Shown one piece after another: positions 1,359 through 55,719 of a DNA stretch of 64,000 nucleotides; position 1 is the stretch's first letter, and each line of letters opens with the position of its first letter. Origin of the DNA: a virus (Duplodnaviria; Caudoviricetes); IMG/VR virus record IMGVR_UViG_2784746770_000001, positions 65,293 to 129,292 of that record, one strand, 5' to 3'. The notes under the pieces were generated by a model. That model did no database searches, had not been told where the DNA came from, and saw only the letters and a list, made by a program, of their open reading frames with translations. A program made the translations under genes and the position numbers.

Positions 1359-1380
1359 AGCCGGTTCGCTCTTGCCGGCT
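1359..1380 (-). promoter_or_regulatory. AAGAGCGA-loop leader hairpin, copy 1
   Basis: Minus strand AGCCGG-C-AAGAGCGA-A-CCGGCT, about 23 nt before ATG 1336; TAAGTTGGTGTACA box at 1496-1509. Confidence 0.7.
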
Positions 1381-1542
1381 GGGGGTGCGGATCCTGTGTC
1401 CCGGTCGCCTGCACGCCTATGGACGGAGTGGCACGCGATTCCGTTACACCAGACCCTGCGCACCTGCCCGCTCAGGACAGTTGCACGATCGTAACTGTAC
1501 ACCAACTTACGATGCGTGTGGAGAGTCGACCAGCCGCCCCAA

Positions 1543-1570
1543 GACACAAGCGCCCCTACCCATCTACGTT
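1543..1570 (+). promoter_or_regulatory. Putative class-2 (late) promoter GACACAAG-N14-TACGTT
   Basis: Same motif and near-identical spacing at five other sites; upstream of the ParB-like/terS/endolysin genes. Confidence 0.5.
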
Positions 1571-1799
1571 CCACTGGCCTGCGAGAAGCCCGACCGCGGA
1601 ACGCGCACCCGCGAACGGGCCTCCAGGCCCGCCGCGCTCTGTCCGGACACACCCAGGGGCGCGGCGGCACGGGGCAGGCGGCCCGGCCCGGCCATGACGG
1701 CACGTCCCGGTAGCGAGACGGGACGCCGCGGTTGAAGTCCGCGGGCTCGCTGGCCGGCCGCCGCCCCTCACCCCCGCCGGTGCGCCGAACGGACCCGCG

Positions 1800-2423
1800 A
1801 TGACCCTCACAGCCCCCCGCTACATCACCTACGTCCCGCTCACCGACCTCCCCGTCGACCCGGCCAACCCGAAGAGCCACGAGATCGAGCGCGTCATCGC
1901 CTCCATCACCGACCACGGCTTCGTGGAGACCGTCGTCGCCGACGAGCGCACCAGCATGCTCATCGCCGGCCACGGCCGCCGCGAGGCCCTGATCGAGATG
2001 CAGATACGCGGCCTGCCGCTGCCCGACGGCCTCCTCCTGGACGACGACGGCGGATGGCTCGTCCCCGTCACCCGCGGCTGGGCCTCCAGGAACGACCGCC
2101 AGGCCCGCGCCCTCCTCATTCTCCTCAACCGCCTCCCCGAGGCCGGCGGGTGGCTGCCCGGCCCGCTCGCCACCATCCTCGAAGACCTTGCCACCGCAGA
2201 CCCCGACCTCCTCGACTCGCTGTGCTTCACCGACGACGAGATGGAGAACCTCCTCCGACAGGTCGACCCCGAGACCCTGCCCCAGGGCCCCGACGGCACC
2301 GCATCGCCCGAGCACGACGACCTGTACAGCGGCGGCGACGGCCTCGCCGACAGCGGCGACAACGACCGCGCCACCACCACGTGCTGCCCGGCCTGCGGAC
2401 ACATCTTCTCGCCGGGACGCTAG
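1800..2423 (+). CDS. ParB/Srx N-terminal domain protein
   Basis: VPLTDLPVDPANPKSH..IASITDHGF..LIAGHGRREAL; C-terminal CPACGH knuckle. Confidence 0.8.
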   Translation: MTLTAPRYITYVPLTDLPVDPANPKSHEIERVIASITDHGFVETVVADERTSMLIAGHGRREALIEMQIRGLPLPDGLLLDDDGGWLVPVTRGWASRNDRQARALLILLNRLPEAGGWLPGPLATILEDLATADPDLLDSLCFTDDEMENLLRQVDPETLPQGPDGTASPEHDDLYSGGDGLADSGDNDRATTTCCPACGHIFSPGR

Positions 2424-2450
2424 ACCCTCCGCTGATCTAGGTTCCGGCCC

Positions 2451-6300: not shown

Positions 6301-6671
6301 GTACGGTCTCGGCTTTCCTGGCGCATTTCTGCCGCGACCCGGGCGGCGATGTCCTCGACGCTCGCGTCGTCGACCGGCTCGATGTCGACGACGCGCAGGC
6401 GGCCGCGTTCGCCGGTCTTGGCGGTGCGTACGTGCACCACGGGGGTGGTGAGGTCTTCCTGGGCGGTGCCGGCGACGGGGTGGGCGCGGCGGTCGGCTCG
6501 GCGCATCATCGCCTCGAAGGCGCGGGCGCGGCCGCTCTCGCTGATGGGACGGCGCGGCACCATGGCGGAGGCGAGTGCGGCCAGCTCTTCCGTCTCGCGA
6601 TCTGCGGCCTTCTCGCCGGACAGGCAGCGGTCCAGCTTCTCCGCTCCGCTATCCCGACGCCCCAGCCACAT
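6297..6671 (-). CDS. Hypothetical protein (possible anti-sigma partner)
   Basis: Overlaps the sigma-factor 3' end and the next start codon. Confidence 0.6.
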
Positions 6672-7359
6672 CGTCTTTCTCCCTCAGCTCCATGTGTGAT
6701 GCGTGCATTACATCGTCTTCCCCGGCATCTGGGGAAGCGGACAGCAAGTACAGCGCCGCTGTGGCGCTGTCCGGCAGCTCCTTGCGGAGTGCCTTGAGCG
6801 CGCGGTACTGCAAGACTCGAATGGTACCTACCTTCCGGCGCATGATCTCCGCCGTCTGGGTTGGGGTGAGACCGACCTTCAAGCGCAGGCGGAGGACCTC
6901 GCGGTAGTCCGGACGGAGCCGGTTGATCCGCTGGTTCAGTGCGCGGCCGAGCTCGCTCCACTCCACCGCTTCCGCGGGGCCGAGGTCGTGGCTGGGCTGG
7001 TCGAAGCGCCAGGTTTCGGAGGGCTGCTCGTACCCGCGGTTGCGCATGGGCCGGTAGTGGTCGGTGCACGCGTTGTCGGCGATGCGGAAGACCCAGGCCC
7101 AGACGCCGGCGCCGGTGTAGGTCTCGATCCGCTCGACCACGCGGGCGAAGGTGTCCTGGGCCAAGTCCTCTGCTGTAGCAGGGTCTTTGACCTTTGTTTC
7201 GAGGTAGCGCACGACGGGTTCGTACATGTGCTGGAAGAGCGTGGCGAGGTTGTCTCGGTCCTCGACGTCCTGCGCGGCGGCCAGGGCGACGGCGTTGAGG
7301 TCCAGCCCAGGGTCGCAGCTGTGCGACTGCGTGCTGCTCGGGCTGGGCGTCTCACGCAT
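6649..7359 (-). CDS. ECF-type RNA polymerase sigma factor
   Basis: Region 2 AEDLAQDTFARV..WVFRIADN..DHYR; region 4 LRPDYREVLRLR..TAEIM..GTIRVLQYRALKALRK. Start chosen by the GGAG RBS. Confidence 0.9.
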   Translation of the reverse strand: MRETPSPSSTQSHSCDPGLDLNAVALAAAQDVEDRDNLATLFQHMYEPVVRYLETKVKDPATAEDLAQDTFARVVERIETYTGAGVWAWVFRIADNACTDHYRPMRNRGYEQPSETWRFDQPSHDLGPAEAVEWSELGRALNQRINRLRPDYREVLRLRLKVGLTPTQTAEIMRRKVGTIRVLQYRALKALRKELPDSATAALYLLSASPDAGEDDVMHASHMELREKDDVAGASG

Positions 7360-7675
7360 CGGCTCCACTCCAGATGTCGGCTCTGTCGGAACGTCATCTT
7401 CCGACAGAGCCAGCGGCATGTGCCAGCGTCGATTAGAACGTAGAACCGAAAACCGCCGCTTCACCCCAAAATGGTCAAAAGGTCATCATGGGTCGTTCGC
7501 CCGTATTTGGGAGATAGTGAATCCCGCATGAACAGGGGCAAACACGACGTGAGCACCGTCGGTTCACAGATGAGCAGTTACGGAACTGTTACCGGGGGAT
7601 TGTCACGTCGGCGCTGCCCGTCTACCCGCGATCCGCGGATTCACTCTGGCGCGCTGGCGCGAATCGGAACCGCGC

Positions 7676-7726
7676 TATCTTGGTGTGCACTATCGTGTGC
7701 GCAACGCGCCGGGAAGAGCGACCCGG
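7676..7726 (+). promoter_or_regulatory. Degenerate box TATCTTGGTGTGCA, -10 TATCGT and AAGAGCGA hairpin copy 2
   Basis: CCGGG-AAGAGCGA-CCCGG at 7709-7726, 20 nt before ATG 7747. Confidence 0.65.
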
Positions 7727-7746
7727 GCACCGGAAAGGAGCGGCGC

Positions 7747-9322: not shown

Positions 9323-11629
9323 TTGTGCCCGCACAAGGTGGCCGAGCACGGAGCCATGATGCCGTATGCCCGCGCGCGCTTCCAGCCCTCCCAGGCGGCG
9401 CGCCGCACAACAAGCCCTCCAGAAGGCGACAAATCGACCCATGGAGAGGCGCAGCTCACCCTTTTCGCGCTCCCCCATCCGGGTGCTCCGGAAGCGCGTC
9501 CGATTCCCCTCCAGCACCAGCTCGGCCTTCCCGGGGTGATGCTCGACCTGTCGCCGCGCGCCGAGCTGCGCGTGGACACCCGCGACGAACTCGGACGCTG
9601 GCAGCACGAGTACAAGGAGGTCCCGCTCGCCGGATTCACCCCGAGCGGACCGTACGCACTGCACCTCACGGACGATCAACACCGCTTCCGGTGGCTCGTG
9701 TTCGACCTCGACACCGCACAGGGCGCGGTCGGCCTCGACCTGGCCAGACTGCTCCGCCACCTCACCGAGGCCGGCCTGAGCTTCGTCACGGTTGCCTCCG
9801 GCCCGACCGGCGGACGCCACGTGTGGGTCGCGGCGACCACTCCCCTGCCGCACCGACTCGTCCGGCTCATCAACACCGCGGCGAAGAAGGTCCTGCCCAC
9901 CCTCGACACCTCCGTGCTCAGCAACCCCGCCACCGGGGCCGTACGGCCGATCGGGTCACCACACCGCGACGGCGGCCGCGCCACGCTGATCTCCCCGGAC
10001 ACCGAGGTCGAAGCCGCTCGCCGCCTCACGCCGGCGTCGTGCGGCAATCCCGTCGAAGCGTTCGAGCGCCTGGCGGTCCTTCTCGGCGCCGACCCCCGAG
10101 ACGCCACGCCTGCCCCGCTCCAACGTCGATCCACAGTCGTCCACGACCGACTGGGCCCCCGCCTCGCCGGCACCCCTTCCACGCTCCTGGACACCGACAC
10201 CGCCGCCACCCTGCGAGCCGTCCCCGACGACGCGAGCCGCGCCCTGGCCTCCCTCCTCGTCCGCCTGGCCGTCCGCCGCTGGACGTGGCCGATGGTCCAG
10301 GCCCTGCTGAGGCAACAGGAGTACCGCCGCGGCGCGCTGCTGCACGCCTGCACCCGCCGCCGCGCCGGGTACCGCGTACAGGTGTCCGACGAGGCCGCCG
10401 AACGGCGCCTGGCCCGACAGTGGAGCCGGTGCGTCGAGTTCGCCTCGCGGATGCCCGCGCGGGATCTCCACGACGACGATGTCCCCTGGAACGATCGCCT
10501 GCGCGATGTTGTCGCTCTGGTCGTCGCGCTCCAGACAGCTGCCGACGCCACTCCTGACCGCTGGGCCATCGAGTCGGGCCCTGCAGACCGCGCGGTGCTC
10601 GACCTGCTGTGCCTGTACGCCCTCAAGGCGGGCACGCTCATTCTCGACCTCGATATCCGTCGGGCCGCCCTCGGCACCGGACACGGCCGGTCCACGATGG
10701 CGAGGGCCACCGGCCGGCTCGCTCTCGACGGGTTCGTCGTCGCCCGGGTGAGCGCAGGAAAGGCGGGAACCTGGGAACTGCTCCCCCTCGATGACGACCA
10801 CCCTCTCGCCCACGCCGCCTTCCAGATCGACATCAATGCCTGGGGTGGGACACAAGGACCCCGCCCATGGGTCGAGGCCGCCCGCACCAACATGGTGGAG
10901 AAGCTCCAGGAGCGTCTGGAGCACATCAGGGCGGACGTCTTCTCTTACGGCCGACTCGGCCACGGACCCACACGACGGCCAGGAGGAATCGGTCACCACA
11001 CGGGCCGGCTGTACGCGGCACTTGCTGAGCACCGGGCGGGCCCGCTGAGCGTTGCCGCGCTCATGGCCGCCACCGGATACGAACGCCGCTGCGTGAAGCG
11101 GAAGCTGGTCCGGATGCAGGAGCTCATGGTCGTGGCCAGGGCCTCTCTCGTACCCCACCATGAATGCCCGACCTGCCACGCGGCTCCGGGAAGTGCTTGT
11201 CGTACGCCCAGCGGGAGCGCCCTGCCGAAGGGTGAGAGGCACGCTCAGAGGACGGCGCTGGCCCGGGCCCGAGCGAAGGCCGGGTACTGGAGGGCGCGTG
11301 AAGGGGCCTGTCTGGTCCAGGCGGCCCAGACGATCGCCGTGCACGGGACGGTCGCCCGTCGGGCCCGGTTCTACGCGGCCGAGATCGAGCTGTGGAACTG
11401 GTGGCAGGACGAAGAGGACTGGATGCGCAGCCCGAAGAAGGGCGTCCGCCGGGGGCCGAGCACGCACGAGGACCAGACGGAAGTCGTCTTGACGACGCTG
11501 GGGCCGTGGAAGCAGCGTCGTCGGTATCCGCGGCATGTGGTCACCTCGGCCGATGGTGGGCGGAGGCCCGGTCGGGCAGACCACAAAGCCGCTTGGGAGC
11601 GGGTCCTGCGTCGGATGCCGATGGTGTAG
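9323..11629 (+). CDS. Putative replication initiator with AEP primase-polymerase-like N-terminus, HTH and Zn finger (start uncertain)
   Basis: WLVFDLD (DxD) and VASGPTGGRHVWV (SG..G.H) AEP motifs; C-terminal CPTCHAAPGSAC. Confidence 0.7.
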   Translation: MCPHKVAEHGAMMPYARARFQPSQAARRTTSPPEGDKSTHGEAQLTLFALPHPGAPEARPIPLQHQLGLPGVMLDLSPRAELRVDTRDELGRWQHEYKEVPLAGFTPSGPYALHLTDDQHRFRWLVFDLDTAQGAVGLDLARLLRHLTEAGLSFVTVASGPTGGRHVWVAATTPLPHRLVRLINTAAKKVLPTLDTSVLSNPATGAVRPIGSPHRDGGRATLISPDTEVEAARRLTPASCGNPVEAFERLAVLLGADPRDATPAPLQRRSTVVHDRLGPRLAGTPSTLLDTDTAATLRAVPDDASRALASLLVRLAVRRWTWPMVQALLRQQEYRRGALLHACTRRRAGYRVQVSDEAAERRLARQWSRCVEFASRMPARDLHDDDVPWNDRLRDVVALVVALQTAADATPDRWAIESGPADRAVLDLLCLYALKAGTLILDLDIRRAALGTGHGRSTMARATGRLALDGFVVARVSAGKAGTWELLPLDDDHPLAHAAFQIDINAWGGTQGPRPWVEAARTNMVEKLQERLEHIRADVFSYGRLGHGPTRRPGGIGHHTGRLYAALAEHRAGPLSVAALMAATGYERRCVKRKLVRMQELMVVARASLVPHHECPTCHAAPGSACRTPSGSALPKGERHAQRTALARARAKAGYWRAREGACLVQAAQTIAVHGTVARRARFYAAEIELWNWWQDEEDWMRSPKKGVRRGPSTHEDQTEVVLTTLGPWKQRRRYPRHVVTSADGGRRPGRADHKAAWERVLRRMPMV

Positions 11630-11647
11630 GTGGCAGGACCCGCTATC

Positions 11648-12139
11648 TCAGCGTCGACCGTTGCCCGAAGACGGGGAGGAGCCGCGGCGCCAGCTGGACG
11701 GCGCGCGGCTGCGGAAAGTCTCCCCCGACAGGACGGCTTGCCGGTTGCGCTCGAACGCGCTGTCCGCCCCGGAGCCCGAGCGGGTCTTGGGAGGGAAGAC
11801 GCAGTCACTATGGGCCCACCCAGCGAAGATCTTCGTCACCAGGGTCTTGGCTGGGTACGACTCTTCGCACATCGGGCACCTTCCCGGGTAGCGCGAAGGC
11901 GTGCCAGGGCCCTTTCGCTGCGGCTGGGGCTTTGAGGGCGTCCGGTCGGGGGGAGCCGGTGGTCCCGCCTGGCGCTGGCCTGCCAAGGTGGCTCGTTCCA
12001 GGCAAGAGGAATGGCAGGGTTTGCGTGACTTGCTCAGCTTGCGCTGGGCGCTACCGATCGGTCGACGGCAGATGGCACACAGATCGCCCGGCCGTCCTGG
12101 TGGTCCGTCGCGGCCCGCCCGGGGCCTAGGGGTCTTCAC
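11648..12139 (-). CDS. Hypothetical Cys/His-rich (Zn-binding) protein
   Basis: CAIC..CHSSC and CPMC..HSDC pairs; codon usage is atypical. Confidence 0.45.
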   Translation of the reverse strand: MKTPRPRAGRDGPPGRPGDLCAICRRPIGSAQRKLSKSRKPCHSSCLERATLAGQRQAGPPAPPDRTPSKPQPQRKGPGTPSRYPGRCPMCEESYPAKTLVTKIFAGWAHSDCVFPPKTRSGSGADSAFERNRQAVLSGETFRSRAPSSWRRGSSPSSGNGRR

Positions 12140-14093: not shown

Positions 14094-15313
14094 AAGACCT
14101 CCTGCACCCCCTGTGCTTGATCCTCGCCGGCACCGGGTTCCTCGTCCTGCTCCGCGACCTGACCCGTGACCGACGAGGGGATCCGGCCCTCGGCGCTCTT
14201 GCCTGGGCCTTCCTCGCCTCCGCCCTCAGCTACGCCGTCTCCATGACCTGGGTCTGGATCCGGGTCGACGACTTCTTCGGTGTGACGAACATCGTCGTCC
14301 CGATCGCCCAGGGCCTGGTGATCCTCGTCCTGACGCTCCAGAGCATTGTCCTGGCCTACTGGTCCCGGCCGGCCGAACAGGCACGGCGCCGGGCCAGGCA
14401 CCTGCTGATCGCGGGGGTGACGGTGATCGCGGGGATGGCGGCACTCTTCGTGCTGCTCACCCCAGCCACGCAGCGGCCGGTGGACTTCTCGCTGTACTAC
14501 GCCCACGACCCCTTCTACCAGGCGTACGTGCTGCTGTACTTCGGCACGTACTCGGCCGCCGAGATCTACCTCGCCCGGTCCTGCTGGAAGTACGCGCGCA
14601 CGGCTGCCCCCTCGGTCGCATTCGGCCTGCGTCTGGTCGCTGTCGGCGCCACCATCACCCTCGGCTACAGCGGCATCCGCATCGCCGGCATCATCGGCGC
14701 CGAGGCCGGATTCAGCGTCAGCCACCTCAACAACTTCGCCTGGGCCTGCGGCGACATCGGTGCCGCCATGACCCAGGTCGGCTACTTCATCCCGGTCATC
14801 GCCGCCCGGCTCGGCCCCTTCCTCGCTCTCGCCCGCGAGCACTACGCCTACGCCCGGCTCGACAACCTGTGGACCACCCTGGTTCGCAGCGACCCCAGCG
14901 TCGTCCTCCAGCCGCCGGTCTCCCAGCGGCAGTACCTGCGCGAGCGCAAGGGCCTCCACTACGAGCTCATCCGGCGCCGTGCCGAGATCCGCGACGCCAT
15001 GATCACGCTGCGCCCGTACCTCAGCGCCGAGGACCGCCGCGCCATCGAGGAGCGCCGGCGCCGCCCGTGGAGGTTCGGCCGCTGGCTCACAGCCGCCGTC
15101 ACCGCCGACCAGGTCCAGCGCGCCCTCGTCCTCCACGCGCAGGGCGCGCCGGTCGACGACCCCACCGAGTACGCCGACCGCGCGCTAGCGCTCGACACTG
15201 CCCGCGCTGAGGAACTACACCTCCTGCGTGTCGCCGCCTTCTTCTACGCGCCGCCGCAGCTCGCCCCCTCTGCTTCTTCCACCAGTACGACCTCTTCAGG
15301 AGCACGCACTTGA
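14090..15313 (+). CDS. MAB_1171c-family multi-pass membrane protein with a DUF6545-like C-terminus
   Basis: About 7 TM helices followed by LIRRRAEIRDAMITLRPY; usual context after an HEXXH regulator. Confidence 0.8.
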   Translation: MKDLLHPLCLILAGTGFLVLLRDLTRDRRGDPALGALAWAFLASALSYAVSMTWVWIRVDDFFGVTNIVVPIAQGLVILVLTLQSIVLAYWSRPAEQARRRARHLLIAGVTVIAGMAALFVLLTPATQRPVDFSLYYAHDPFYQAYVLLYFGTYSAAEIYLARSCWKYARTAAPSVAFGLRLVAVGATITLGYSGIRIAGIIGAEAGFSVSHLNNFAWACGDIGAAMTQVGYFIPVIAARLGPFLALAREHYAYARLDNLWTTLVRSDPSVVLQPPVSQRQYLRERKGLHYELIRRRAEIRDAMITLRPYLSAEDRRAIEERRRRPWRFGRWLTAAVTADQVQRALVLHAQGAPVDDPTEYADRALALDTARAEELHLLRVAAFFYAPPQLAPSASSTSTTSSGART

Positions 15314-16878
15314 TGTCCCGCCGCACTCTCCTCGCCGCGTCCGCGGCCGTCGCCGGCGCCCTCGGCATAGCCCGCCCTGCCGCCGCCGAGGAGGGCAGCG
15401 CCGCCCGCGCCGCCACCCCGCTCTACCTCGCCCCCGCCCGCCAGCAGCTCACCGCGCTCCGCAACGGCTACATCTCCAGCCGGGACCTGCTCGAACAGCT
15501 CCTCGCGCACCACGCCAAGCACAACCCGAGCCTGAACGCCGTCGCCACCCTCGACGCGGCTGCCGCCCGTGCCGCCGCCGACAAGGCCGACCAGTACCTC
15601 GCCAGCACCGGCTGGACCCTCGGCCCGCTCCACGGCCTGCCGATCACTGTCAAGGACGCTCTGGAGACGAAGGGGATGCGCACCACCTGCGGCTCCCCCG
15701 ACCTCACCGGCCACATCCCCACCACCGACGCCGACGCCGTCGCCCTCCTGCGCGCCGCCGGCGCCATCATCATCGGCAAGACCAACGTGCCGGTCATGTG
15801 CCAGGACATCCAAACGAGCAACCCGCTGTTCGGCACCACGAAGAACCCCTTCGCTGCCGACCGCACCGCCGGCGGCTCCTCCGGCGGCCCCGCGGCCGCC
15901 GTCGCCGCGGGCCTGTCCTCCCTCGAAGTCGGCTCCGACCTCGCCGGATCGCTTCGCCTCCCGGCCGCGTACTGCGGCGTCTACGCCCTGCGGACCAGCC
16001 GCGGCACCTCCCCCATCGTGCCCACGCGCGGTCACATCCCGCGCCCGCCCGGCTGGCTCACCAGCAGCGACATGCTCTCCCTCGGACCGATCGCCCGCAC
16101 GCCCGCCGACCTCGACCTCCTCCTGGACGTGCTCGCCGCCCCGGCCCCGGCCGACGCGTCCGCCTGGCAGATCAACCTCCCGGCCCCCACGAAGACGTGC
16201 CTGAGCCAGTACCGGATCGGTATCTGGGCCGATGACGCGTACTGCCGCGTCGGCGCCGATGTCCGCGGCCTGCTCGCCACGGTCGCCCAGGCCGTCCGCA
16301 CCGCCGGCGCGCGCGTCGACGACACCACGAAGCCCGTCGACTTCGCGGCCAGCGACAAGTTGTTCCAGCGCCTGATGTACGCGACGTCCGCCGCCAGCTC
16401 CACCGACGCCGCGTTCGCCGGCGAGGTCGCGGCCGCCGACGCCCTCGCCGACGACGACCCGAGCGCCCTCTACCTCAAGAGCCGCACCATGCGACACCGC
16501 GACTGGGCGCGCGCCGACGAGGACCGGCAGAAGCTCCGCGCCACCTGGGCCTCCTACTTCGAGACCCACGACATCCTCATCACCCCCGCGGCCCCGACCG
16601 CCGCCGTCCTCGACCAGACCTCCGTCCCGGTCCCCCAGCGGTACATCACCGTCGACGGCCAGAAGCGCTCGTACTACGACCAGACCGCGTGGATCAACCT
16701 CGCCGGACCGGTCGGCCTCCCCTCGCTCGTCGTCCCGGCCGGCCAGACCGCCGACGGCCTCCCGCTCGCCATCCAGCTCATCGGCCCGCACCTGACCGAC
16801 CGCACCCTCATCTCCGTCGCCCAGCTCCTCGCGAACGTCCTTCCGACCGCCCCGAAGGCCCCGGCGCTCGCCGGATAG
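15313..16878 (+). CDS. Tat-exported amidase-signature family amidase
   Basis: SRRTLL Tat signal with an AAA cleavage site; GPLHGLPITVKD, GKTNVP, GGSSGG and GSDLAGSLRLPAAYCG motifs. Confidence 0.92.
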   Translation: MSRRTLLAASAAVAGALGIARPAAAEEGSAARAATPLYLAPARQQLTALRNGYISSRDLLEQLLAHHAKHNPSLNAVATLDAAAARAAADKADQYLASTGWTLGPLHGLPITVKDALETKGMRTTCGSPDLTGHIPTTDADAVALLRAAGAIIIGKTNVPVMCQDIQTSNPLFGTTKNPFAADRTAGGSSGGPAAAVAAGLSSLEVGSDLAGSLRLPAAYCGVYALRTSRGTSPIVPTRGHIPRPPGWLTSSDMLSLGPIARTPADLDLLLDVLAAPAPADASAWQINLPAPTKTCLSQYRIGIWADDAYCRVGADVRGLLATVAQAVRTAGARVDDTTKPVDFAASDKLFQRLMYATSAASSTDAAFAGEVAAADALADDDPSALYLKSRTMRHRDWARADEDRQKLRATWASYFETHDILITPAAPTAAVLDQTSVPVPQRYITVDGQKRSYYDQTAWINLAGPVGLPSLVVPAGQTADGLPLAIQLIGPHLTDRTLISVAQLLANVLPTAPKAPALAG

Positions 16879-16944
16879 CCCAGCGGCAGCAAGTTCCGGT
16901 GGTCCGGCCCTCGCGGGGGTGGGGCGGGGCCGCCGAGCAAGACA

Positions 16945-16976
16945 AGGGGCCAGGGTTCGTGTGAACCCTGGCCCCT
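16945..16976. terminator. Bidirectional hairpin terminator
   Basis: 14-bp perfect stem AGGGGCCAGGGTTC-gtgt-GAACCCTGGCCCCT between convergent genes. Confidence 0.8.
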
Positions 16977-17010
16977 CGTTTATGCCGGACGACTTGGCAG
17001 CATCGGCACG

Positions 17011-18294
17011 TCAGATCGTACGCAGCCCCGCCCGAGGCGCGGTCACGCCCACCCGCCACCGAGACGGCTGCGCCGCACCCTTCCAGCGCGGCACACCGCT
17101 CGGGCGCGGCACGGCCCGCTCCGGCCGCTCACCCGGCAGGTCCCACCCGCTGATCACGACCTCGGGATCGATCAGCGCCTCCACCGCTGGCCAGACCATG
17201 AACGGCGACAGGCGGACCAGCTCGGCCAACTGCTCGCGCTCCTCTTCGGACTGCCCCAGCCCGGCCGCGGGCTGCGACACCTGCTCACGGGCGGAGGCCA
17301 GCAAGGTGGGCCGGTCAAGGTGGATCGGCACGCCGTGCAGGCCGTCCCACGTGCCGTCGCTGTCGATCAGGAGGCGCAGCTCGGGCCGCCCCGTGTTGGA
17401 GTCGTGCTCCAGGTGCACGAAGACTCCCCGGACCTGCGGGAGCGTCCCGGCCTCCGCCAGCGGAGTCGACGGCCAGGCGATGTAGACGCAGTGCTGCGGC
17501 AGTCCTTCGAGGATGCGCTCGCGCGGCAGCGGCTTCTCGGCGGGGACATCGGGCTGGGCCCACGCTGCTGCCACGTGCTTGGCCGCCGCCTCGTCGTCGA
17601 CCCAGTACACGCCCTTGGTCAGCCACCAGGCCGAGAGCGCCGCCACCCGCGCGATGTCGCCCGCGCGCGGGTCGCCCGGGAACCCGCCCCCGTGGGGGTA
17701 CACGACACCGGCCGCCGCTCCCATCGGCACCCAACACCAGTCCGGCCACGCGCCGACCTCCTGGGTCCCCTTGCGGTCCGCGTGCTGGGCCATCTCGGCG
17801 AGGACACCGGGGTACCGCTTGCGCATCTCGCGGACCAGGCCCATGCAGCGGTCGGCCGCCTCCGCGGTCACCTTCTCCGGATCGGACGGCGCGGTCTCGT
17901 ACGACTCCGCCGCCGGGGCCGGGACGGTGAACAGCGGCGTCGCCGGGACCTCCTCCACGCCGTCGCCGTACTCGTCGTCCGCCTCGTCCGTGATCAGACC
18001 CAGGGTGAGGTCATAGGGCAGCTTGCAGACGACGAAGCCGTCCACCATCCGCCACCCGGCCCGCTCGACCGACTTCACCGGCGCGGGCACCAAGTTGTCC
18101 AGCAGCGTCTTCCGGGCCGGGGCGTCGCCGAGCTCGCCCAGGTCGAGAACCACGAGGATGCTGTGCCCGCCGTCCAGCGTGTAGCAGTGCCAGGGGGCCA
18201 GGTCCTCGGGCAGCTTCCGCCCGTAGGTGCGTCCCGGCATGGTCATGCCGGCCAGTACGGTCGCGATGACCATGCCCGGGTCTACGGTGCTCAC
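17011..18294 (-). CDS. Hypothetical protein
   Basis: GAGGAGAGG RBS; 427 aa; high-GC3 codons. Confidence 0.8.
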   Translation of the reverse strand: MSTVDPGMVIATVLAGMTMPGRTYGRKLPEDLAPWHCYTLDGGHSILVVLDLGELGDAPARKTLLDNLVPAPVKSVERAGWRMVDGFVVCKLPYDLTLGLITDEADDEYGDGVEEVPATPLFTVPAPAAESYETAPSDPEKVTAEAADRCMGLVREMRKRYPGVLAEMAQHADRKGTQEVGAWPDWCWVPMGAAAGVVYPHGGGFPGDPRAGDIARVAALSAWWLTKGVYWVDDEAAAKHVAAAWAQPDVPAEKPLPRERILEGLPQHCVYIAWPSTPLAEAGTLPQVRGVFVHLEHDSNTGRPELRLLIDSDGTWDGLHGVPIHLDRPTLLASAREQVSQPAAGLGQSEEEREQLAELVRLSPFMVWPAVEALIDPEVVISGWDLPGERPERAVPRPSGVPRWKGAAQPSRWRVGVTAPRAGLRTI

Positions 18295-18344
18295 AGGTAC
18301 CTCTCCTCAGGGGTGAAGCGGGTAGGGGCGGTAGCGCGGTAGAC

Positions 18345-18510
18345 CGGCTCCGCCCGTTCTTTCCGCGCCTACGGGCGCGGTCGCGTCGGTACGCAGCCCC
18401 GCGGAGGCGGGGAGAAAGGGCTTCGGCCCTTCGTGGTGCCTCACGTGAGTGAGGAGCAGGGCCGCGAGTCGACTCGGGCCGAGAAGCTCACCCTAGCGGG
18501 GTGAGGGGAC
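18345..18510 (+). ncRNA. Candidate multi-hairpin ncRNA
   Basis: Seven consecutive short hairpins; + strand loops include C(UACG)G, C(UUCG)G, GUGA and GGAG. Confidence 0.55.
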
Positions 18511-18549
18511 GCCGCTCAGGCCAACAGTCCGGCCGGGCGACGCAGGTGG

Positions 18550-19278
18550 TCAGCGCAAGATGCGGGCCATCGGGCAGCGCGAGAGCCCAAAGGTCTCGGT
18601 GCACGCGTGCGGTGTCTCGGGGTGGGCGGCCTTCACGGCGGCCTTCACATCGTCGTCCAGGCGCCGGATGTGCTGGGGGCCTTGGATGCGGGGGTCCCCT
18701 TCCGCCGTCCACCCGCAGGAGCACACGGCGGCGGTGACCCGGATGGGCATGGGCCCATTTTTCGCCCGGCGGGGGAGTTCCACGAGTACCGGGACCAGGG
18801 TGTGAGGTCCGAGGCCCGCGCCCTGGAGGACGTCCAGGCGCCCGAGCGCGTCCGCGACCTCGTGGCCCGCGTCCCCCGCCATGGCCAGCAGCAGACTGCC
18901 CCGGTTGTCGATCCACCAGGACGCAGAGGCGTTCTTCAACGCCTTGTCCACGATGACCTCGCCGAGGTCCTTCCGCGCCTCAGGGAACGCCTTCCGCCAG
19001 CTGTCCGCCATACCTCGCACGGTGCCGATCGCGTCCGCTCGGAGCGTCTGCGCCCACGCCACCTGCCGCTCGGTCCCCGTCAGGTCCGGCCAGCCGGCGG
19101 CCGCGGCCGCCGCAGCGTTCACGGTGCTCTCCTCGCGCCGCTGGGCCTCGACACAGGAGGAACAGTCGCTCTTCTCCATCCACTCCATGGTTTCCCCGCG
19201 CCTCTTGTGCGGGCCGATCAGGTCCACCCGCTCCTCGTGCCCGCAGGCTCGGGTGATGTCGTACTTGGCCATACTCAT
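18550..19278 (-). CDS. Hypothetical protein with Cys motifs
   Basis: ACGHEE..DCSSC..LTGTERQVAWAQTLR..ASWWIDNR, a recurrent phage/plasmid protein pattern. Confidence 0.8.
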   Translation of the reverse strand: MSMAKYDITRACGHEERVDLIGPHKRRGETMEWMEKSDCSSCVEAQRREESTVNAAAAAAAGWPDLTGTERQVAWAQTLRADAIGTVRGMADSWRKAFPEARKDLGEVIVDKALKNASASWWIDNRGSLLLAMAGDAGHEVADALGRLDVLQGAGLGPHTLVPVLVELPRRAKNGPMPIRVTAAVCSCGWTAEGDPRIQGPQHIRRLDDDVKAAVKAAHPETPHACTETFGLSRCPMARILR

Positions 19279-19333
19279 CCTCTCGGTGATGGTGCCGGAC
19301 AGGATGCCGGGCGCCGCTGACAGCGCCCGGCAG

Positions 19334-19546
19334 TTACGCGGATTCAGCGAAGCACTCCGGGCACGTCGAGGCGGGCTCCTCAGGGTGCTCGGAGCACACC
19401 TCCATGACCGTGTAGGGGGTGTCTCCGTCGTCTTCGGCTATGAGTTGGGCGGCCACGGCCAGGGCCTCCGCGCGGCCGGCATCGCCGTAGAACGGGCCGT
19501 CGACCATGGCGGCGCCGTCCTCGAAGACGCCGTACTCGGCGCTCAC
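19334..19546 (-). CDS. Small hypothetical protein
   Basis: GTGA-coupled to the upstream gene; C-terminal C..H...CPEC. Confidence 0.65.
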   Translation of the reverse strand: MSAEYGVFEDGAAMVDGPFYGDAGRAEALAVAAQLIAEDDGDTPYTVMEVCSEHPEEPASTCPECFAESA

Positions 19547-20994: not shown

Positions 20995-21037
20995 GGGGTT
21001 CCTTCGGGGTACGAGGCGACCGAGGGGCCGCGGTGGG

Positions 21038-22021: not shown

Positions 22022-22128
22022 GGTGGAGCTCCAGGAAGGCGTGGGCAGCCGTACGCGGACGCGTGCGGGCCGTGGAAGGGGTTCGGGGCCGCCGCGCCCG
22101 GGCCGGTGCCGGGCGCGGCGGGGCGCGG

Positions 22129-22953: not shown

Positions 22954-22980
22954 AAGGGTGCCTTTCTGGAGGTCAAAGCG

Positions 22981-23034: not shown

Positions 23035-23087
23035 TTGAGTGGGGGGAGGGGTACGCGACCATCAACCCCTCCCCCGCCCCGGCCGGC

Positions 23088-25145: not shown

Positions 25146-25192
25146 GACGGGGCTCCAGTTCGGTGCGGGAAGGGGCGGGCGGTCGCGGCGCG

Positions 25193-33949: not shown

Positions 33950-34098
33950 CCCGGGGCGCCGCGCGCGCGCCCGCTCACGTACATGACGACCGGGGGCGGC
34001 GATTCTCCCCTCCGTGCTCCCCGGTTCACCCGAACGGGTGACGGGCGTGCCGCCGCCCCCGCCCTGACCTGCTGCTCCCGTTCGCCCTGGAGGCCCCC

Positions 34099-34788: not shown

Positions 34789-34850
34789 CCCATTGCCCAT
34801 AAGTGGGTGTACAGTTGTCGTTGTTGGCCCCCAAGAGCGAGGGGGGCAAC
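34785..34850 (+). promoter_or_regulatory. TTGACC-N19-TACAGT promoter with TAAGTGGGTGTACA box and AAGAGCGA hairpin copy 6
   Basis: GTTG-G-CCCCC-AAGAGCGA-GGGGG-G-CAAC at 34823-34850. Confidence 0.8.
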
Positions 34851-44800: not shown

Positions 44801-44816
44801 TAACTTGGTGTACATT
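44801..44816 (+). promoter_or_regulatory. TAACTTGGTGTACATT box
   Basis: Matches the box found at six other promoters; no clear hairpin follows. Confidence 0.55.
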
Positions 44817-53097: not shown

Positions 53098-53141
53098 AAC
53101 GGCGTCTTGGAAGCGTCCCACAAGATCACCAGCGGGCAGCG

Positions 53142-53564
53142 TTATCCAGCCGGGTTCGCGGCGAGCCAGTCCTCCAGGGCGTGCGCCGGCTGCAGCACCA
53201 GGGTCCGGTTCCAGCCCGCGTCCCCCTCGACCTTCGCCCGCCCGGCCTCGATCTGGTCGATCAGCTTGTACGCGGGCCCCCAGAACGCGGGGCCGGCCGA
53301 GTCGGCGTTCATCGCCTTCCGCAGCGCCCGGGCGTTCACCACGACCTCGTCCAGATCGCGCGCGCAGTCGTCCGGGCAGCCGTCCCACGCGAGCGCGTCC
53401 AGGTCGTCCTCGAACACCGTCCGGGCCCGCGACACCGACGGCGCCGGGCTCGCGCTCGCCGCAGCCTTCCCCGTCTCCCCCGCGTCCTCACCGCACCCTG
53501 CGACCGCCACAACGGCCGAGGCCGCGAGCAGCACGCTCGCGGCCTTCCCCCACCACTTGATCAT
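53142..53564 (-). CDS. Putative lipoprotein
   Basis: MIKWWGKAASVLLAASAVVAVAG-C lipobox. Confidence 0.75.
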   Translation of the reverse strand: MIKWWGKAASVLLAASAVVAVAGCGEDAGETGKAAASASPAPSVSRARTVFEDDLDALAWDGCPDDCARDLDEVVVNARALRKAMNADSAGPAFWGPAYKLIDQIEAGRAKVEGDAGWNRTLVLQPAHALEDWLAANPAG

Positions 53565-53587
53565 GGCGCCGATCATCCCACGAGACG

Positions 53588-55552
53588 TCAACCACCGACC
53601 GTGGTCCGCTCCTTCTCCCTCACGGGCGCGGCCGCCGGCGCCGTACGCCGCGGTGCGACCCTGAACCGCATCGCCCGGTTCTCGTCCTTCCCGGCCTCCA
53701 CGACCCAGCCCTTCGCCCGCCACTGCTGCACCGGCCCGTCCGCCGACGTCCTGGAGCCGACGTTCGGCAGACCGAGAGCCACCAGCCCGTTGAGCGTGAT
53801 GCCCGCCGGGCCCGCCTTCTCGATCGCCTGCCATAGCGCGAGCCGGTGATCCGGGATCTCCGACCCGTCAGGGAAGGTTGGCACGACGTGCAGCGTCGGT
53901 CGCTCCCCGCCGCCCCCGCCGTCCGGCGGCCCCTGAGGCGGCTCCGGTGGCTTCGGCCGCTCCTCCGACGGCCGCTCCGAGACCAGATCCACCGCCTCAA
54001 CACCGCCGTACCGGTGCACGGTCGCCGCGATCTGGTCGTCCGACATCATGAATGCGCGGCGCTCCATCGGCTCGGCGTGCTCCGGCGCGCGCGAGGAGAT
54101 CATGAACTTGCCCGGCAGGTTCAGCTCGTTCAGGTACCAGCCGGCGCCGAGCGCCCCCGGGCCCATGATCAGGTTGATCGGGGTGGTCTCCGTGACGCCC
54201 AGACCGATGCGGATCTGGTACTGCTGTCGGGCGTCGGTGTCGCCACCGAACACCTTCTTCGAGGGCGACTGCGTGGCCTCCACGAAGTGGATCGCGACGA
54301 ACCGGGCGAGCTGGCGCAGCGACTCCAGCTCCGGGGACTGCTTCGGATCCTGGCGGATCAGCTCGGCGAGCTCGTCGACGATGACGAACCAGGCCGTGCC
54401 GTGAACGCCGGGCACCCACTTCCGCACCGGCTTCCCCGTCTCCAGGCTCAGCTGGGCCAGGATCCTCCCGCGCCGCTCCACCTCCTGGCGGACCAACCGC
54501 AGCAGCGCCCGGGCCTTCGCCGGAGTGTCGGCGAAGGCCCGCGCGCAGGCGCGCCATGGCCCGAGCTCGACGGCGCCCGGCTTCATGTCCACGAGCAGCA
54601 TCTCGGCGTCGGTCGCGGCCGCGATGTTCCCGGCCAGGACGTTCAGCAGGCCCGATTTGCCGTTGTCGGTGGCCCCGCCGATCAGGGTGTGGCTGTAGAG
54701 CAGGCAGACCCGCACCTCCGACCCGTCCCGGGACCGGCCGAGGGTGATCTCCTCTGTGATGGAGGTGATCGACGGCCCCTCCCACGGGATGGTCTCGGCC
54801 AGAGGGTCGTGCACCTGCATCCGGACGAGGAGCTGGTTGTCTTGGCCGCCGATGGACAGCAGCAGCCGCCCGGGCAGCCCCAGGTTCGCCGAAAGCTGCT
54901 GGCGCTGGGCGATGACGGCCTCCGCAGACGTCCTCCGGCCCGGCGGCAACGTCACCAGCGCCGTCCACCCGTTGTCGGTGAAGTGCAGCGCTGTGACGTC
55001 CAAGGGCGGGATCCCCAACGCCGTCAGGGCGCGGCGCAGCGCGGTCTCCTCCTCGCTCTCGCCGGTCACCCCCGGCGCCCCGGCATCGATCCCGAGCGCC
55101 CCGGGCAGCGAGCCCGCCTTTGCGGCGTCGATCTGGAGACGCATCCGCTCGTCCCGGCGGCGCGACAGCCAGGGCACGTACGCGCAGTAGGCGCCCAAGG
55201 TGGTAATCCCGGTCGCGACGAAGGCAGGGGCGGACGGGCCGGCCGCCGCGTTGATCCACGTGTCGCCGAGCACGACGGTCATCCCCGCGCCCGCCGCCGC
55301 GAGAACGGTCTTCTTGTGCTTCACGCCACCGGCCGTCAGCGCCGCCGTGGCGACGGTGCTCAGCCCGTAGACGACGTGCTCGCCCACGCTGACGTCTGAG
55401 ACGTGGTGCAGCCAGCCCAGACCCGTCAGCGAGGCCGAGGCGGCGGCGGGAGCGAGCTCGTAGCGGCGGCGAAGGCACCAGCGGTACGCCGTACCGGCCA
55501 CACTCGAAACGGCTATGGCGGCGCGCAGCAGCGCGCGGTCCCTGGCGGGCAT
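53588..55552 (-). CDS. traB: FtsK/SpoIIIE-family conjugative DNA translocase (TraB-like)
   Basis: N-terminal TMs, HTLIGGATDNGKS Walker A, VDMK, IVDELAEL Walker B, LARFVAIHFVEATQ, C-terminal winged helix. Confidence 0.88.
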   Translation of the reverse strand: MPARDRALLRAAIAVSSVAGTAYRWCLRRRYELAPAAASASLTGLGWLHHVSDVSVGEHVVYGLSTVATAALTAGGVKHKKTVLAAAGAGMTVVLGDTWINAAAGPSAPAFVATGITTLGAYCAYVPWLSRRRDERMRLQIDAAKAGSLPGALGIDAGAPGVTGESEEETALRRALTALGIPPLDVTALHFTDNGWTALVTLPPGRRTSAEAVIAQRQQLSANLGLPGRLLLSIGGQDNQLLVRMQVHDPLAETIPWEGPSITSITEEITLGRSRDGSEVRVCLLYSHTLIGGATDNGKSGLLNVLAGNIAAATDAEMLLVDMKPGAVELGPWRACARAFADTPAKARALLRLVRQEVERRGRILAQLSLETGKPVRKWVPGVHGTAWFVIVDELAELIRQDPKQSPELESLRQLARFVAIHFVEATQSPSKKVFGGDTDARQQYQIRIGLGVTETTPINLIMGPGALGAGWYLNELNLPGKFMISSRAPEHAEPMERRAFMMSDDQIAATVHRYGGVEAVDLVSERPSEERPKPPEPPQGPPDGGGGGERPTLHVVPTFPDGSEIPDHRLALWQAIEKAGPAGITLNGLVALGLPNVGSRTSADGPVQQWRAKGWVVEAGKDENRAMRFRVAPRRTAPAAAPVREKERTTVGG

Positions 55553-55697
55553 GCGGGTCCTCCCCGAGTGACGTGACGTAGATGTGCGGGCCCCAGACGA
55601 CGGGGTACGTCACGTCACGGACGGGGAGACAGCAGCACTGATCAGGGGGGTACGGGTGCGCGTCATCGGCATGCCCTTCTGGAGTTCTCGGCCGGGG

Positions 55698-55719
55698 CCA
55701 GCGCTCGCTCTTGCGCCAG
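55698..55719 (-). promoter_or_regulatory. AAGAGCGA leader hairpin copy 7, upstream of the traB operon
   Basis: CUGGCGC-AAGAGCGA-GCGCUGG; two G-U pairs are possible only on the minus strand. Confidence 0.7.

Follow-up and report, generated by a model that had tools for sequence, protein, structure and literature searches.

A Gilgamesh-like Streptomyces siphophage/phage-plasmid carries nine 5'-leader hairpins that share the loop AAGAGCGA, and the same element recurs in eight complete relatives as well as at nine additional loci. The leading interpretation, to which we give a probability of roughly 45%, is that the hairpins act in cis as a lineage-specific regulatory RNA operator in the ~130-kb Gilgamesh-like Streptomyces phage-plasmids, read by a phage factor. 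Judged from its sequence, the element is most plausibly an RNA hairpin that would be bound by a protein and act in the transcript; which protein would bind it, and in which direction and at which level it would take effect, we infer in the same manner. That the device is kept with other loops in relatives points to an undescribed phage-encoded gene switch at the RNA level.

Replicon

The analysed window (64,000 bp) is part of a contig of 129,292 bp, and positions refer to the window unless the contig is named. The first-pass annotation had taken the replicon for a traB-type conjugative plasmid, an identity that did not stand; it encodes a portal, capsid, tape measure, ERF, SSB and lysin. Beside the ERF recombinase, the phage has an HNH nuclease and a sigma-70-family (ECF-type) sigma gene (6649-7368, minus strand). 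About nine genes of this contig, non-structural ones, are hairpin-led, and the structural arm has zero hairpin sites.

Nine leader hairpins with a common loop

Counting AAGAGCGA on both strands of the window gave nine copies versus an expectation of 1.22 (S.D. 1.0, maximum 4) from 100 dinucleotide-preserving shuffles, none of which reached nine. Seven copies are the loops of the hairpins reported in the first-pass annotation, which were found in place, each enclosed by 5-10-bp inverted repeats. The copies at 19166(-) and 49206(+) were rejected as hairpins, with stems of just 2 and 1 bp. The stem-loop search over the whole contig that had been proposed at that stage added two further sites, making nine in total; of the 13 copies of AAGAGCGA in the contig, nine are leader hairpins and four are non-hairpin. 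The sites, with loop positions, covariance-model scores and distances from loop to start codon, are:

Hairpin 1, 1359-1380(-), loop 1366-1373: stem AGCCGG/CCGGCT with C.A adjoining the loop AAGAGCGA; 30.8 bits; ATG 1336 at 29 nt; 186-aa core gene (776-1336), then the replication module
Hairpin 2, 7707-7728(+), loop 7714-7721: stem CCGGG/CCCGG, loop AAGAGCGA; 28.3 bits; ATG 7747 at 25 nt; 66-aa basic protein
Hairpin 3, 22987-23008(-), loop 22994-23001: stem (TT)GGCCCCC/GGGGGCC(GG); 34 bits; GTG 22953 at 40 nt; 274-aa gene with no assigned function
Hairpin 4, 29667-29688(-), loop 29674-29681: stem GGCCCCC/GGGGGCC, extended to 10 bp; 34 bits; ATG 29627 at 46 nt; leftward array follows
Hairpin 5, 29850-29871(+), loop 29857-29864: stem GCGGC/GCCGC; 31.3 bits; GTG 29904 at 39 nt; 119-aa candidate reader gene
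Hairpin 6, 34826-34847(+), loop 34833-34840: stem GCCCCC/GGGGGC plus extension; 32.6 bits; ATG 34883 at 42 nt; 341-aa gene, rightward array
Hairpin 7, 55698-55719(-), loop 55705-55712: stem CUGGCGC/GCGCUGG; 28.8 bits; ATG 55666 at 38 nt; 18-codon ORF (55666-55610)
Extra leader hairpin, loop at contig 61899-61906(-), 3.4 kb left of the window
Extra leader hairpin, loop at contig 63650-63657(-), 1.6 kb left of the window; stem 4 bp only, folded loop P(unpaired) = 0.44

The replication module behind hairpin 1 has a weak Replic_Relax match, with an IstB-like loader further left. The unit led by hairpin 2 is divergent from the sigma gene, and the 18-codon ORF behind hairpin 7 is followed by inverted GACGTGAC repeats and then an FtsK/SpoIIIE (TraB-like) gene (55552-53588).

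At 9/9 sites the loop is AAGAGCGA when read in the direction of the gene that follows, as first described. An unbiased scan of all 7-mers within stems of at least 5 bp ranked AAGAGCG top in this genome, where hairpin-enclosed cores outside called genes numbered 10 versus 1 for the reversed-core controls. The covariance model built from the nine sites scored them at 24.8-34 bits, which is so by construction as they trained the model, and the next-best place in the contig reached just 16.9 bits; therefore, the family has exactly nine members here.

Stems covary around a fixed loop

The stems were originally said to differ in sequence yet stay paired, and the covariation check proposed for this claim upheld it: in a nine-sequence alignment (A2), 7/7 stem pairs were changed on both sides. 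Among the nine sites of this genome, 85.7% of the pairing cells paired versus 52.3% after shuffling, none of 500 shuffles matched the covariation, and sliding the partner columns by 1-3 dropped pairing to 34-60%. Similarly, 78.5% of the cells paired in the set of 26 sites with the loop CACAGCGA versus 46.4% after shuffling, a value that 0/500 shuffles reached. The excess of G.U over A.C at inner stem positions was weak (34 vs 20). In group II, the register slid by +1 paired equally well because the loops there are 6-8 nt.

Stems are 5-10 bp long and free in sequence, and the loop letters are fixed within one genome. The loop has 8 nt here and 6-10 in relatives, with AGC (A4-G5-C6) invariant across the family. 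When the leaders were folded, the loop was open in 8/9 (P(unpaired) 0.84-1.0), the SD region was mostly open, and the leaders displayed had one hairpin only ahead of the SD. Covariation and sense polarity thus bear out a strand-specific, structure-constrained 5'-leader feature.

Hairpins lie at a narrow distance from gene starts

The polarity was counted on 102 intergenic hairpins from 8 genomes. An SD and start codon lay within 60 nt downstream of 76/102 in the sense direction and of 6/102 in the antisense direction. The distance of 20-40 nt to the start given in the first-pass annotation held roughly, as an AGAAAGG-type SD and a start follow 25-46 nt past the loop. Across the family, loop and start codon are ~28-45 nt apart; counted from AGC, the distance was 28-45 nt in 45/48 group-II sites having a found start, 28-42 nt in 9/9 MBT27 sites, and 30-51 nt in 7/8 own sites. 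The narrow spacing could partly reflect conservation of the whole leader rather than a mechanical need. Lineage-specific motifs (CAACGCTCC, ACCACGAAG, CCACACACC) lie 3' of the hairpins.

The description of the sites as heading transcription units fits the long arrays of this genome, but in relatives some hairpins also lie within operons with the start-codon distance kept narrow. At Gilgamesh 114203 and 111610, the hairpin stands directly behind a terminator-like hairpin, leaving no room for a promoter. The narrow distance and the within-operon sites are more easily reconciled with action on translation or on the 5' end of the mRNA than with one nut site per operon.

Promoter-like sequences precede several of the hairpins here. 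A GGTGTACA motif associated with a promoter lies at:

29797-29804(+), GGTGTACA motif
34806(+), 29708(-), 23028(-), 1503(-) and 44807(+), other copies of GGTGTACA

Hairpin 5 follows a sigma-70-like promoter (TGTACA 29799-29804, 18-nt spacer, TATGAT 29823-29828), hairpin 4 a TTGACA-N19-TACATT containing the palindrome ACACCGT-N9-ACGGTGT (29704-29726), and hairpin 6 a TTGACC-N19-TACAGT; hairpin 3 begins ~12 nt past a promoter-like ATAAGnnGGTGTACAGT motif. In three cases the hairpin begins 11-13 nt past TACAnT. The GGTGTACA copy at 44807 has no AAGAGCGA hairpin behind it.

Relatives keep the hairpin and change the loop

The loop AAGAGCGA was found in this genome alone. The relatives have the lineage-specific loops CACAGCGA, NCGAGCRA and GAGAGCA(C/A), so that the loop called 'invariant' at first is fixed within each genome but differs between lineages across the family. 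Orthologous genes retain the hairpin while its stem and loop type change. The 7-mer scan (stems of at least 5 bp) placed GAGAGCA at the top in Gilgamesh, NBC_01220, S. zaomyceticus and S. anulatus. Counts of hairpin-enclosed cores outside called genes, versus reversed-core controls, were 9 vs 0 in MBT27, 9 vs 0 in 11x1, 10 vs 0 in NBC_01278, 19 vs 3 in zaomyceticus, 15 vs 4 in NBC_01220, 17 vs 2 in Gilgamesh and 13 vs 0 in anulatus. The number of sites per genome is 9-19.

The hairpin is not a host motif and is absent from host chromosomes: five host genomes gave 2 marginal matches, both on phage-plasmid contigs, and 151 Streptomyces genomes gave single matches in 3 at E<=0.01. No Rfam 15 family matched the window at gathering score, no match overlapped any hairpin even at E<=5, and contig 58-66 kb gave 0 matches at E<=1. 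Literature searches found no paper describing such hairpins. The first-pass remark that it knew of no such described system in Streptomyces mobile elements agrees with both the Rfam and the literature searches.

An arginine-rich protein is encoded directly behind a hairpin

The first gene past the loop at 29857 encodes the best candidate for the factor, and a second hairpin of a different kind follows it:

29904-30263(+), candidate reader gene (119 aa, pI 10.4)
30285-30322(+), strong terminator-like GC hairpin without a U tract, between the stop of the reader gene and the next gene (30366)

Residues 3-27 of the 119-aa protein are arginine-rich and predicted to form a single long helix (model pLDDT 89.7), followed in the predicted structure by a small alpha/beta domain without known relative. 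The protein has 39 homolog clusters, most of them on ~122-138 kb contigs. It matched no Pfam family at E<=0.01 and no PDB entry at E<=10 in a profile search, and fold searches were without match; its neighbours in the atlas (ANT, KilA-N and Rha, DNA-binding phage regulators) were weak, with chance-level scores. An arginine-rich protein is encoded directly behind a hairpin in 14/14 group-I and 4/4 group-II genomes (18/18), and the terminator-like hairpin was in the same place after the reader gene in 5/5 genomes examined.

The N-terminal prefix of the protein follows the loop type: MP[NK] goes with CACAGCGA in 6/6 cases and MS..RR.RRR with NCGAGCRA in 7/7. In the tree of the C-terminal domain, this genome and MBT27 are sisters (97/90), and their prefixes and loops differ. 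This covariation of prefix and loop depends on what amounts to a single discordant event, phylogeny being a confounder in all other cases. The 119-aa protein may bind DNA, e.g. the lineage-varying GGTGTACA promoter motif.

A possible mechanism and its alternatives

The hairpin borders the ribosome-binding region on its 5' side, in many cases coinciding with or lying close to the predicted mRNA 5' end; in the operator reading, a phage-encoded factor would read the loop and set the protein output from the hairpin-led messages. It might do so (i) by promoting or hindering the loading of 30S subunits, or (ii) by shielding the 5' end from 5'-dependent decay. The strongest candidate for this factor is the 119-aa protein with the arginine-rich helix; since its own message carries a hairpin, it would be autoregulated.

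The main rival of this translation or 5'-end-stability reading, which we regard as rather unlikely, is antitermination of the N/nut kind: the arginine-rich protein, made first from the rightward promoter, would bind the nascent leader hairpin and let RNA polymerase read through the terminators, GC-rich and U-less, behind its gene and many other early genes. The analogy with lambda N, drawn in the first-pass annotation, found partial support that was unexpected. In both systems there is a sense-strand leader hairpin of early operons, whose loop is recognised in lambdoid phages and would be recognised on the RNA here, the first gene behind the site encodes a small protein whose N-terminal helix is rich in arginine, here past a promoter and hairpin, and a strong terminator-like hairpin lies directly past its stop; that hairpin suits antitermination equally well. 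Many Gilgamesh genes are trailed by strong GC hairpins, whose terminator function is putative, and long gene arrays of this genome are headed by hairpins. Lambda, P22 and phi21 have phage-specific loop/peptide recognition, which the lineage-specific pairs of loop and prefix recall, specificities differing among related phages in both cases.

The analogy fails in other respects. BoxB has a 5-bp stem and a 5-nt GNRA-like purine loop, whereas the loop here has 8 nt with the invariant AGC and is not of the boxB type. The 9-19 sites per genome are not one per operon, several of them, some within operons, lie immediately downstream rather than upstream of a terminator-like hairpin, and the nut model gives the narrow start-codon distance no role. 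On inspection of the flanks, no motif common to all sites was evident 5' of the hairpins, where a boxA would lie. Lambda N is a disordered protein, whereas the candidate is predicted to be folded, shows no N homology in the Pfam and PDB profile searches and resembles N in its arginine-rich N-terminal helix alone; the host here, moreover, is actinobacterial.

It is still less probable that the hairpin is a purely cis-acting 5' element without a dedicated reader, guarding the message against 5'-end-dependent RNases and insulating the SD from GC-rich upstream sequence, with folding or a host factor as the sole reason for keeping the loop. At three sites here and several in Gilgamesh, the hairpin starts 5-13 nt past a -10-like TAC(A/T)nT, so it would be placed at the extreme 5' terminus of the RNA, and downstream there is a strong extended SD in a region that is mostly open when folded. 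Such an element leaves unexplained why all 8 loop letters are fixed in 9/9 sites and are other letters in relatives whose hosts belong to the same genus, and why stems drift freely beside fixed loops. The absence of the motif from host chromosomes also speaks against it.

A DNA-level element, i.e. a cruciform or ssDNA hairpin serving a phage sigma factor or a protein of replication or recombination, or else a dispersed repeat spread by the enzyme of a mobile element, is highly improbable. The phage does have its own sigma factor, ERF recombinase and HNH nuclease, and the loop lies 19 nt past TGTACA, in the -10 position, at three sites; the distance to the promoter motif, however, varies here (19, 24, 52 and about 130 nt), and many sites of relatives are without the motif. 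The strict gene/SD polarity (76 vs 6 of 102), the position tied to the start codon and the lack of sites in the structural arm also argue against it.

Least probable of all is RNA-RNA control, in which the loops would kiss a conserved phage non-coding RNA of ~215 nt (contig 58766-58981, plus strand): this RNA, just left of the window and syntenic in 9/9 genomes, has a very stable fold (-139.5 kcal/mol over 240 nt) and carries AAGAGCGA, one of the four non-hairpin copies, paired to its complement UCGCUCU, but the matching position in relatives has partial loop-like strings only, with the complement of their own loop missing or buried in another helix, the loops lack U and the U-turn motif usual in kissing loops, and a single copy would have to serve 9-19 targets.

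Comparison with other phage and RNA elements

The coat-protein operators of MS2 and PP7 are likewise short hairpins, specific in loop sequence and free in stem sequence, read by a phage protein that sets translation. They include the start codon or SD of one gene, whereas here the SD follows 10-30 nt downstream of the hairpin, and the hairpins serve 9-19 genes of a dsDNA phage as a regulon. The stoperators of Cluster A mycobacteriophages resemble the sites as many copies of an asymmetric motif oriented with transcription and spread over the non-structural portion of an actinophage's genome; they differ as double-stranded DNA repressor sites with neither hairpin nor covariation, both of which are found here.

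The RNA targets of ANTAR proteins (PMC3369931) consist of a tandem pair of hairpins, of which the second overlaps a terminator, with loops that need A1 and G4. The likeness lies in a mini-hairpin with a conserved terminal loop, and the hexaloop cores AGAGCG, ACAGCG and AGAGCA have A1 and G4; the loops here, however, are of 8 nt unless a flanking A.A closes, and the NCGAGCRA type has C at hexaloop position 1. The hairpin here is single rather than tandem, and its loop varies with the phage lineage. A search of this genome for ANTAR (PF03861) gave no match and was equally silent in all 14 control genomes.

SAS and ESAS (PMC3203893) are, respectively, a linear motif of 13 bp at the RBS of Cluster K mycobacteriophages, 3-8 bp before the start, and inverted-repeat arms of 17 bp that are conserved around a variable spacer, for which the authors found little support as mRNA hairpins. 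They share with our element that a multi-copy, orientation-specific motif lies just upstream of the starts of a subset of genes in actinobacteriophages, that the consensus varies by sub-lineage, and that the function is suspected to be translational. In contrast to the ESAS pattern, the hairpins reported here show the reverse, a fixed loop with covarying arms, and do not belong to SAS/ESAS.

Leader hairpins of this genome

The 8-nt word AAGAGCGA, which forms the loop of the leader hairpins of this genome, occurs nine times in the window against 1.22 copies expected, and none of 100 shuffles reached nine. The window makes up the right half of one contig of 129,292 bp, which as a whole holds 13 copies, nine of them hairpin loops and four not. 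The seven hairpins that the first-pass annotation had reported in the window were all found exactly where it had placed them, each within an inverted repeat of 5–10 bp. The other two lie 3.4 and 1.6 kb to the left of the window, the one at 1.6 kb being weak, with a 4-bp stem. The following elements are referred to by position below:

29667–29688 (-), hairpin 4
29850–29871 (+), hairpin 5, with the loop beginning at 29857
29904–30263 (+), gene of the candidate reader protein
55698–55719 (-), hairpin 7

In all nine cases the loop reads AAGAGCGA on the strand of the next gene, the sense that had been claimed for it, and a start codon preceded by an AGAAAGG-type Shine-Dalgarno sequence follows 25–46 nt after the loop. 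The annotation had also described the stems as differing in sequence while staying paired, and this was borne out by the nine-row alignment: changes on both sides were seen in 7 of 7 pairs, and 85.7% of the cells were paired compared with 52.3% after shuffling; the observed covariation was reached by none of 500 shuffles. When the partner columns were slid, pairing fell to 34–60%. When the leaders were folded, the hairpin formed and its loop was open in eight of the nine (probability of being unpaired 0.84–1.0).

We performed the exhaustive search of the contig that had been proposed earlier, using a covariance model derived from the nine sites. Their own scores were 24.8–34 bits, which is high by construction, and elsewhere in the contig the top score was 16.9 bits, so that the contig has no hidden members. 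The proposed comparison with Rfam showed no family matching the hairpins, either at the gathering score or at lenient E-values, and we found no paper on such hairpins or on the phage Gilgamesh in the literature. Elsewhere in the window, a sub-threshold match to the Rfam L31-Actinobacteria ribosomal-protein leader at 24347–24389 (-) (29.2 bits, gathering score 35, E 0.12) lies inside a 702-aa gene and is probably due to chance.

Occurrence in a family of Streptomyces phage-plasmids

The replicon had been taken for a conjugative plasmid with a replication-initiator operon. Its left arm encodes a portal, a prohead protease, a major capsid protein, a tape measure and tail proteins, and the window carries the neighbour region of an ERF recombinase, an IstB-like loader, an SSB, an amidase-type lysin, a sigma-70-family sigma factor, an HNH protein, an FtsK/SpoIIIE (TraB-like) protein and a tyrosine recombinase. 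Identity of the capsid protein is 69.5% to its counterpart in Streptomyces phage Gilgamesh (129,136 bp), an isolated phage with the recorded host S. lividans JI 1326, and 68–83% to those of seven Streptomyces 'plasmids' of 125–132 kb. As the annotation of Gilgamesh includes ParA- and ParB-like proteins, the virion genes and the capsid kinship assign the replicon to a phage-plasmid lineage instead. The head module also contains a single uninterrupted frame of 6062 codons, with GC3 of the coding type (contig 15861–34049, +), which shows 35–69% identity in all eight relatives, and the palindrome GTGTCTCACATGTGAGACAC is present in three copies in the structural arm (contig 44547, 44587 and 46587).

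Eight relatives were compared as whole genomes, together with nine further loci from other Streptomyces genomes; a search for further relatives among viral contigs found none. Unbiased counts of loop words over all predicted starts and upstream regions were dominated by chance GC-rich hairpins, and success came from orthology-guided inspection and from a scan in which every 7-mer was scored for the frequency of its enclosure by a stem of at least 5 bp. The top-ranking word was AAGAGCG in this genome and GAGAGCA in Gilgamesh, NBC_01220, S. zaomyceticus and S. anulatus; Gilgamesh and its kin are called group II below. The loop is (A)CACAGCGA(A) in MBT27, 11x1 and NBC_01278 and NACGAGCA(A/C) in NBC_00536, and the nine further loci contribute CACAGCGA, ACGAGCGA, ACGAGCAA and CCGAGCAA. 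In the 8-nt register, A4-G5-C6 is common to all loops, and positions 1–3 and 7–8 vary.

Hairpin-enclosed cores outside called genes strongly exceeded the reversed-core control in eight of nine genomes (17 versus 2 in Gilgamesh, 9 versus 0 in MBT27). The core pattern GAGCA[AC] of NBC_00536 was too loose (14 versus 11 in the control), and this genome was left out of the polarity count and judged by orthologous sites only. A separate dispersed or tandem repeat was seen on the NBC_00536 plasmid, where GGGTTCGGGTT words are heavily enriched outside called genes (e.g. 42 of 64 copies of GGGTTCG).

The stems were also examined in the relatives. Paired cells made up 78.5% at the 26 CACAGCGA sites (46.4% shuffled) and 65% at the 55 group-II sites (47% shuffled), with none of 500 shuffles reaching either value; both sets had been pre-selected for stems of at least 5 bp, which inflates the percentage paired and leaves the counts of double changes unaffected. 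In group II a slide by +1 performs equally well, because the loops there are 6–8 nt long. The hairpin is kept, with changed stems and loop types, at orthologous genes: the gene at 29904, the gene of a 186-aa protein at 776–1336, the small gene beside the sigma gene, and the traB leader.

Position relative to genes and promoters

Among 102 intergenic hairpins from eight genomes, a Shine-Dalgarno sequence and a start codon lie within 60 nt downstream in 76 cases in the sense orientation versus 6 in the antisense orientation. The distance from AGC to the start codon is 28–45 nt, mostly 34–38 nt, in 45 of the 48 group-II sites for which a start was identified, 28–42 nt in 9 of 9 sites of MBT27, and 30–51 nt in 7 of 8 sites of this genome.

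A promoter-like motif, (C)ATAAGnnGGTGTACAnT, precedes five to seven sites in this genome, and one site has a canonical promoter, TGTACA-18-TATGAT. At three sites the hairpin begins 11–13 nt past TACAnT, so that it would form the very 5′ end of the RNA. Several Gilgamesh hairpins have no such motif and lie within operons, 5–20 nt past a strong GC hairpin that trails the previous stop codon. In the non-structural arms, many stop codons are trailed by strong GC-rich hairpins without a U-tract, for example at 11509–11652 and 14144–14243 of the Gilgamesh segment and at 30285–30322 of the window; these hairpins are often only 5–20 nt ahead of the conserved-loop hairpin of the next gene.

The structural arm contains no member of the hairpin family. 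A search of five whole host genomes gave only two marginal matches, both on phage-plasmid contigs, and only 3 of 151 sampled Streptomyces genomes had a single match at E ≤ 0.01, which is about chance level. The hairpin motif is thus not a host regulon.

A candidate reader protein

The first gene behind hairpin 5 (29904–30263) encodes a protein of 119 aa with a pI of 10.4 and an arginine-rich N-terminus. Its homologs form 39 clusters, most of them on contigs of approximately 122–138 kb; such elements are common, the candidate reader alone having this many clusters. L14, R15, R18 and R22 are invariant across the homologs. AlphaFold2, run with the homolog alignment, predicted one long helix (residues 3–27) followed by a small alpha/beta domain (pLDDT 89.7). 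The protein gave no Pfam family and no PDB sequence-profile match, and fold searches were equally without a match (best E 0.69 with Foldseek against PDB, best Z 4.5 in the wide VIA-align search, best E 0.12 in BFVD). Its neighbours in the ESM atlas, at scores of 0.83 or lower and thus at chance level, were DNA-binding phage regulators.

The gene is led by a hairpin in 18 of 18 genomes examined, and a strong GC hairpin without a U-tract lies past its stop codon in 5 of 5 genomes examined. The Gilgamesh homolog, gp129, has the N-terminal motif AAVLRDR.R.NR in common with its three group-II homologs, and the genes of all four stand directly behind a promoter and a hairpin. The N-terminal prefix MP[NK].R goes with the loop CACAGCGA in 6 of 6 cases and MS..RR.RRR with NCGAGCRA in 7 of 7, and AAGAGCGA occurs in this genome alone. 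In a tree of the C-terminal domain, this genome and MBT27 are sisters (support 97/90) with both prefix and loop different, and in MBT27 both match those of a separate clade. This is a single event of joint change in prefix and loop, at odds with the remainder of the protein.

Proposed mechanism and comparison with known systems

The results confirmed and extended the original observation: the element is real and conserved, is specific to one strand and is undescribed, and its mechanism is inferred. In kind it would be a protein-read leader hairpin regulon, a known kind. The fixed loop, the free stem, the strict polarity, the narrow spacing to the start, the occurrence gene by gene and the switching of the loop together point to an operator in the sense RNA and to a reader encoded by the phage. 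Such a factor would recognize the loop and exert its effect at the site of ribosome loading or at a 5′ end exposed to attack. We put the probability of a sense-RNA operator with a phage-encoded reader at somewhat under one half (about 0.45); the arginine-rich protein is the best candidate for the reader, though an unproven one.

The main rival, which the first-pass annotation had put forward, is antitermination of the lambda N/nut type. An arginine-rich first gene with a terminator-like hairpin behind it fits this idea well; however, the number of sites fits poorly, the sites are placed after terminator-like hairpins, and the spacing of the hairpins to the start codons would go unexplained, and on this analysis we consider antitermination unlikely. 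In its logic the element comes closest to lambda N/boxB, yet of the five features that define that system, four are lacking or not judgeable here. The closest published actinophage feature, the SAS/ESAS of Cluster K mycobacteriophages, has conserved arms and no compensatory changes as far as the excerpted text of PMC3203893 describes it, an arm and loop pattern opposite to that of the present hairpins. ANTAR targets, in the excerpted text of PMC3369931, follow an A1/G4 hexaloop rule, which the cores AGAGCG, ACAGCG and AGAGCA would fit while the NCGAGCRA type has C at position 1, and need two hairpins, in which they differ. A search for ANTAR domains gave no match, and the control genomes were equally silent.

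Next in order, a hairpin that stabilizes the 5′ end without any reader is improbable, and a role of the element at the DNA level still more so. Least credible is pairing of the loop with a conserved RNA left of the window, a trans-partner idea that we have mostly rejected. This very stable, RNA-like structure of approximately 215 nt (contig 58766–58981, +, some 6.3–6.5 kb to the left of where the window begins) is preceded by a TATCAT box, and its MFE is -139.5 kcal/mol over 240 nt. In 9 of 9 genomes it is found in synteny, behind the same 120-aa gene; it has a conserved GGGGCCGGGGAG core and gave no Rfam match at E ≤ 1. A loop serving as the -10 element for the phage sigma factor was rejected because of the variable spacing and the promoter-less sites, and an RNase III site because of stems that, on general reasoning, are too short.

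A more far-reaching and tentative reading is that a family of ~130-kb Streptomyces phage-plasmids may run its non-structural genes by a private RNA code. A small protein with an arginine-rich helix and no fold match would read the 8-nt loop xxxAGCxx on otherwise free hairpins ahead of 9–19 genes, and loop and prefix would have been co-switched into at least four classes (AAGAGCGA, CACAGCGA, NCGAGCRA and GAGAGCAC/A). If true, this would be the first N-like regulon (arginine-rich-motif peptide and hairpin) in actinophages, possibly acting on translation, read-through or both, and it would provide high-GC hosts with a set of naturally occurring, orthogonal RNA-protein pairs. Should the pairing of peptide and loop hold, the arginine-rich-motif/hairpin principle would reach Actinobacteria and provide orthogonal RNA tags for Streptomyces engineering.

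To our knowledge, post-transcriptional control has hardly been described in the phages and phage-plasmids of Streptomyces. The present cis-element is clean and statistically solid, has a concrete candidate reader, and offers a built-in comparative experiment, with the loop fixed per genome and switching between genomes while the stems covary. As Gilgamesh is an isolated phage, the hypothesis is directly testable.

Other elements near the hairpins

Between hairpins 4 and 5 lies a divergent control region whose leftward promoter-like site is overlapped by a perfect palindrome, ACACCGT-N9-ACGGTGT (29704–29726). This palindrome looks like a repressor operator, and the terminator scan additionally listed it as terminator-like. 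The promoter motif GGTGTACA at 44807–44814 (+) stands before the gene of a 345-aa protein, upstream of HNH and large conserved (terminase-like) genes; instead of a AAGAGCGA hairpin, a small hairpin of another sequence, AGGGG-CTT-CCCCT, comes after it. The region 55560–55666 (-), which separates hairpin 7 from the TraB-like gene, holds an 18-codon ORF and then inverted GACGTGAC repeats (GTGACGTGACGT ... ACGTCACGTCAC), which may be an operator or a TraB recognition (clt-like) site; similar inverted repeats are found ahead of traB in eight relatives.
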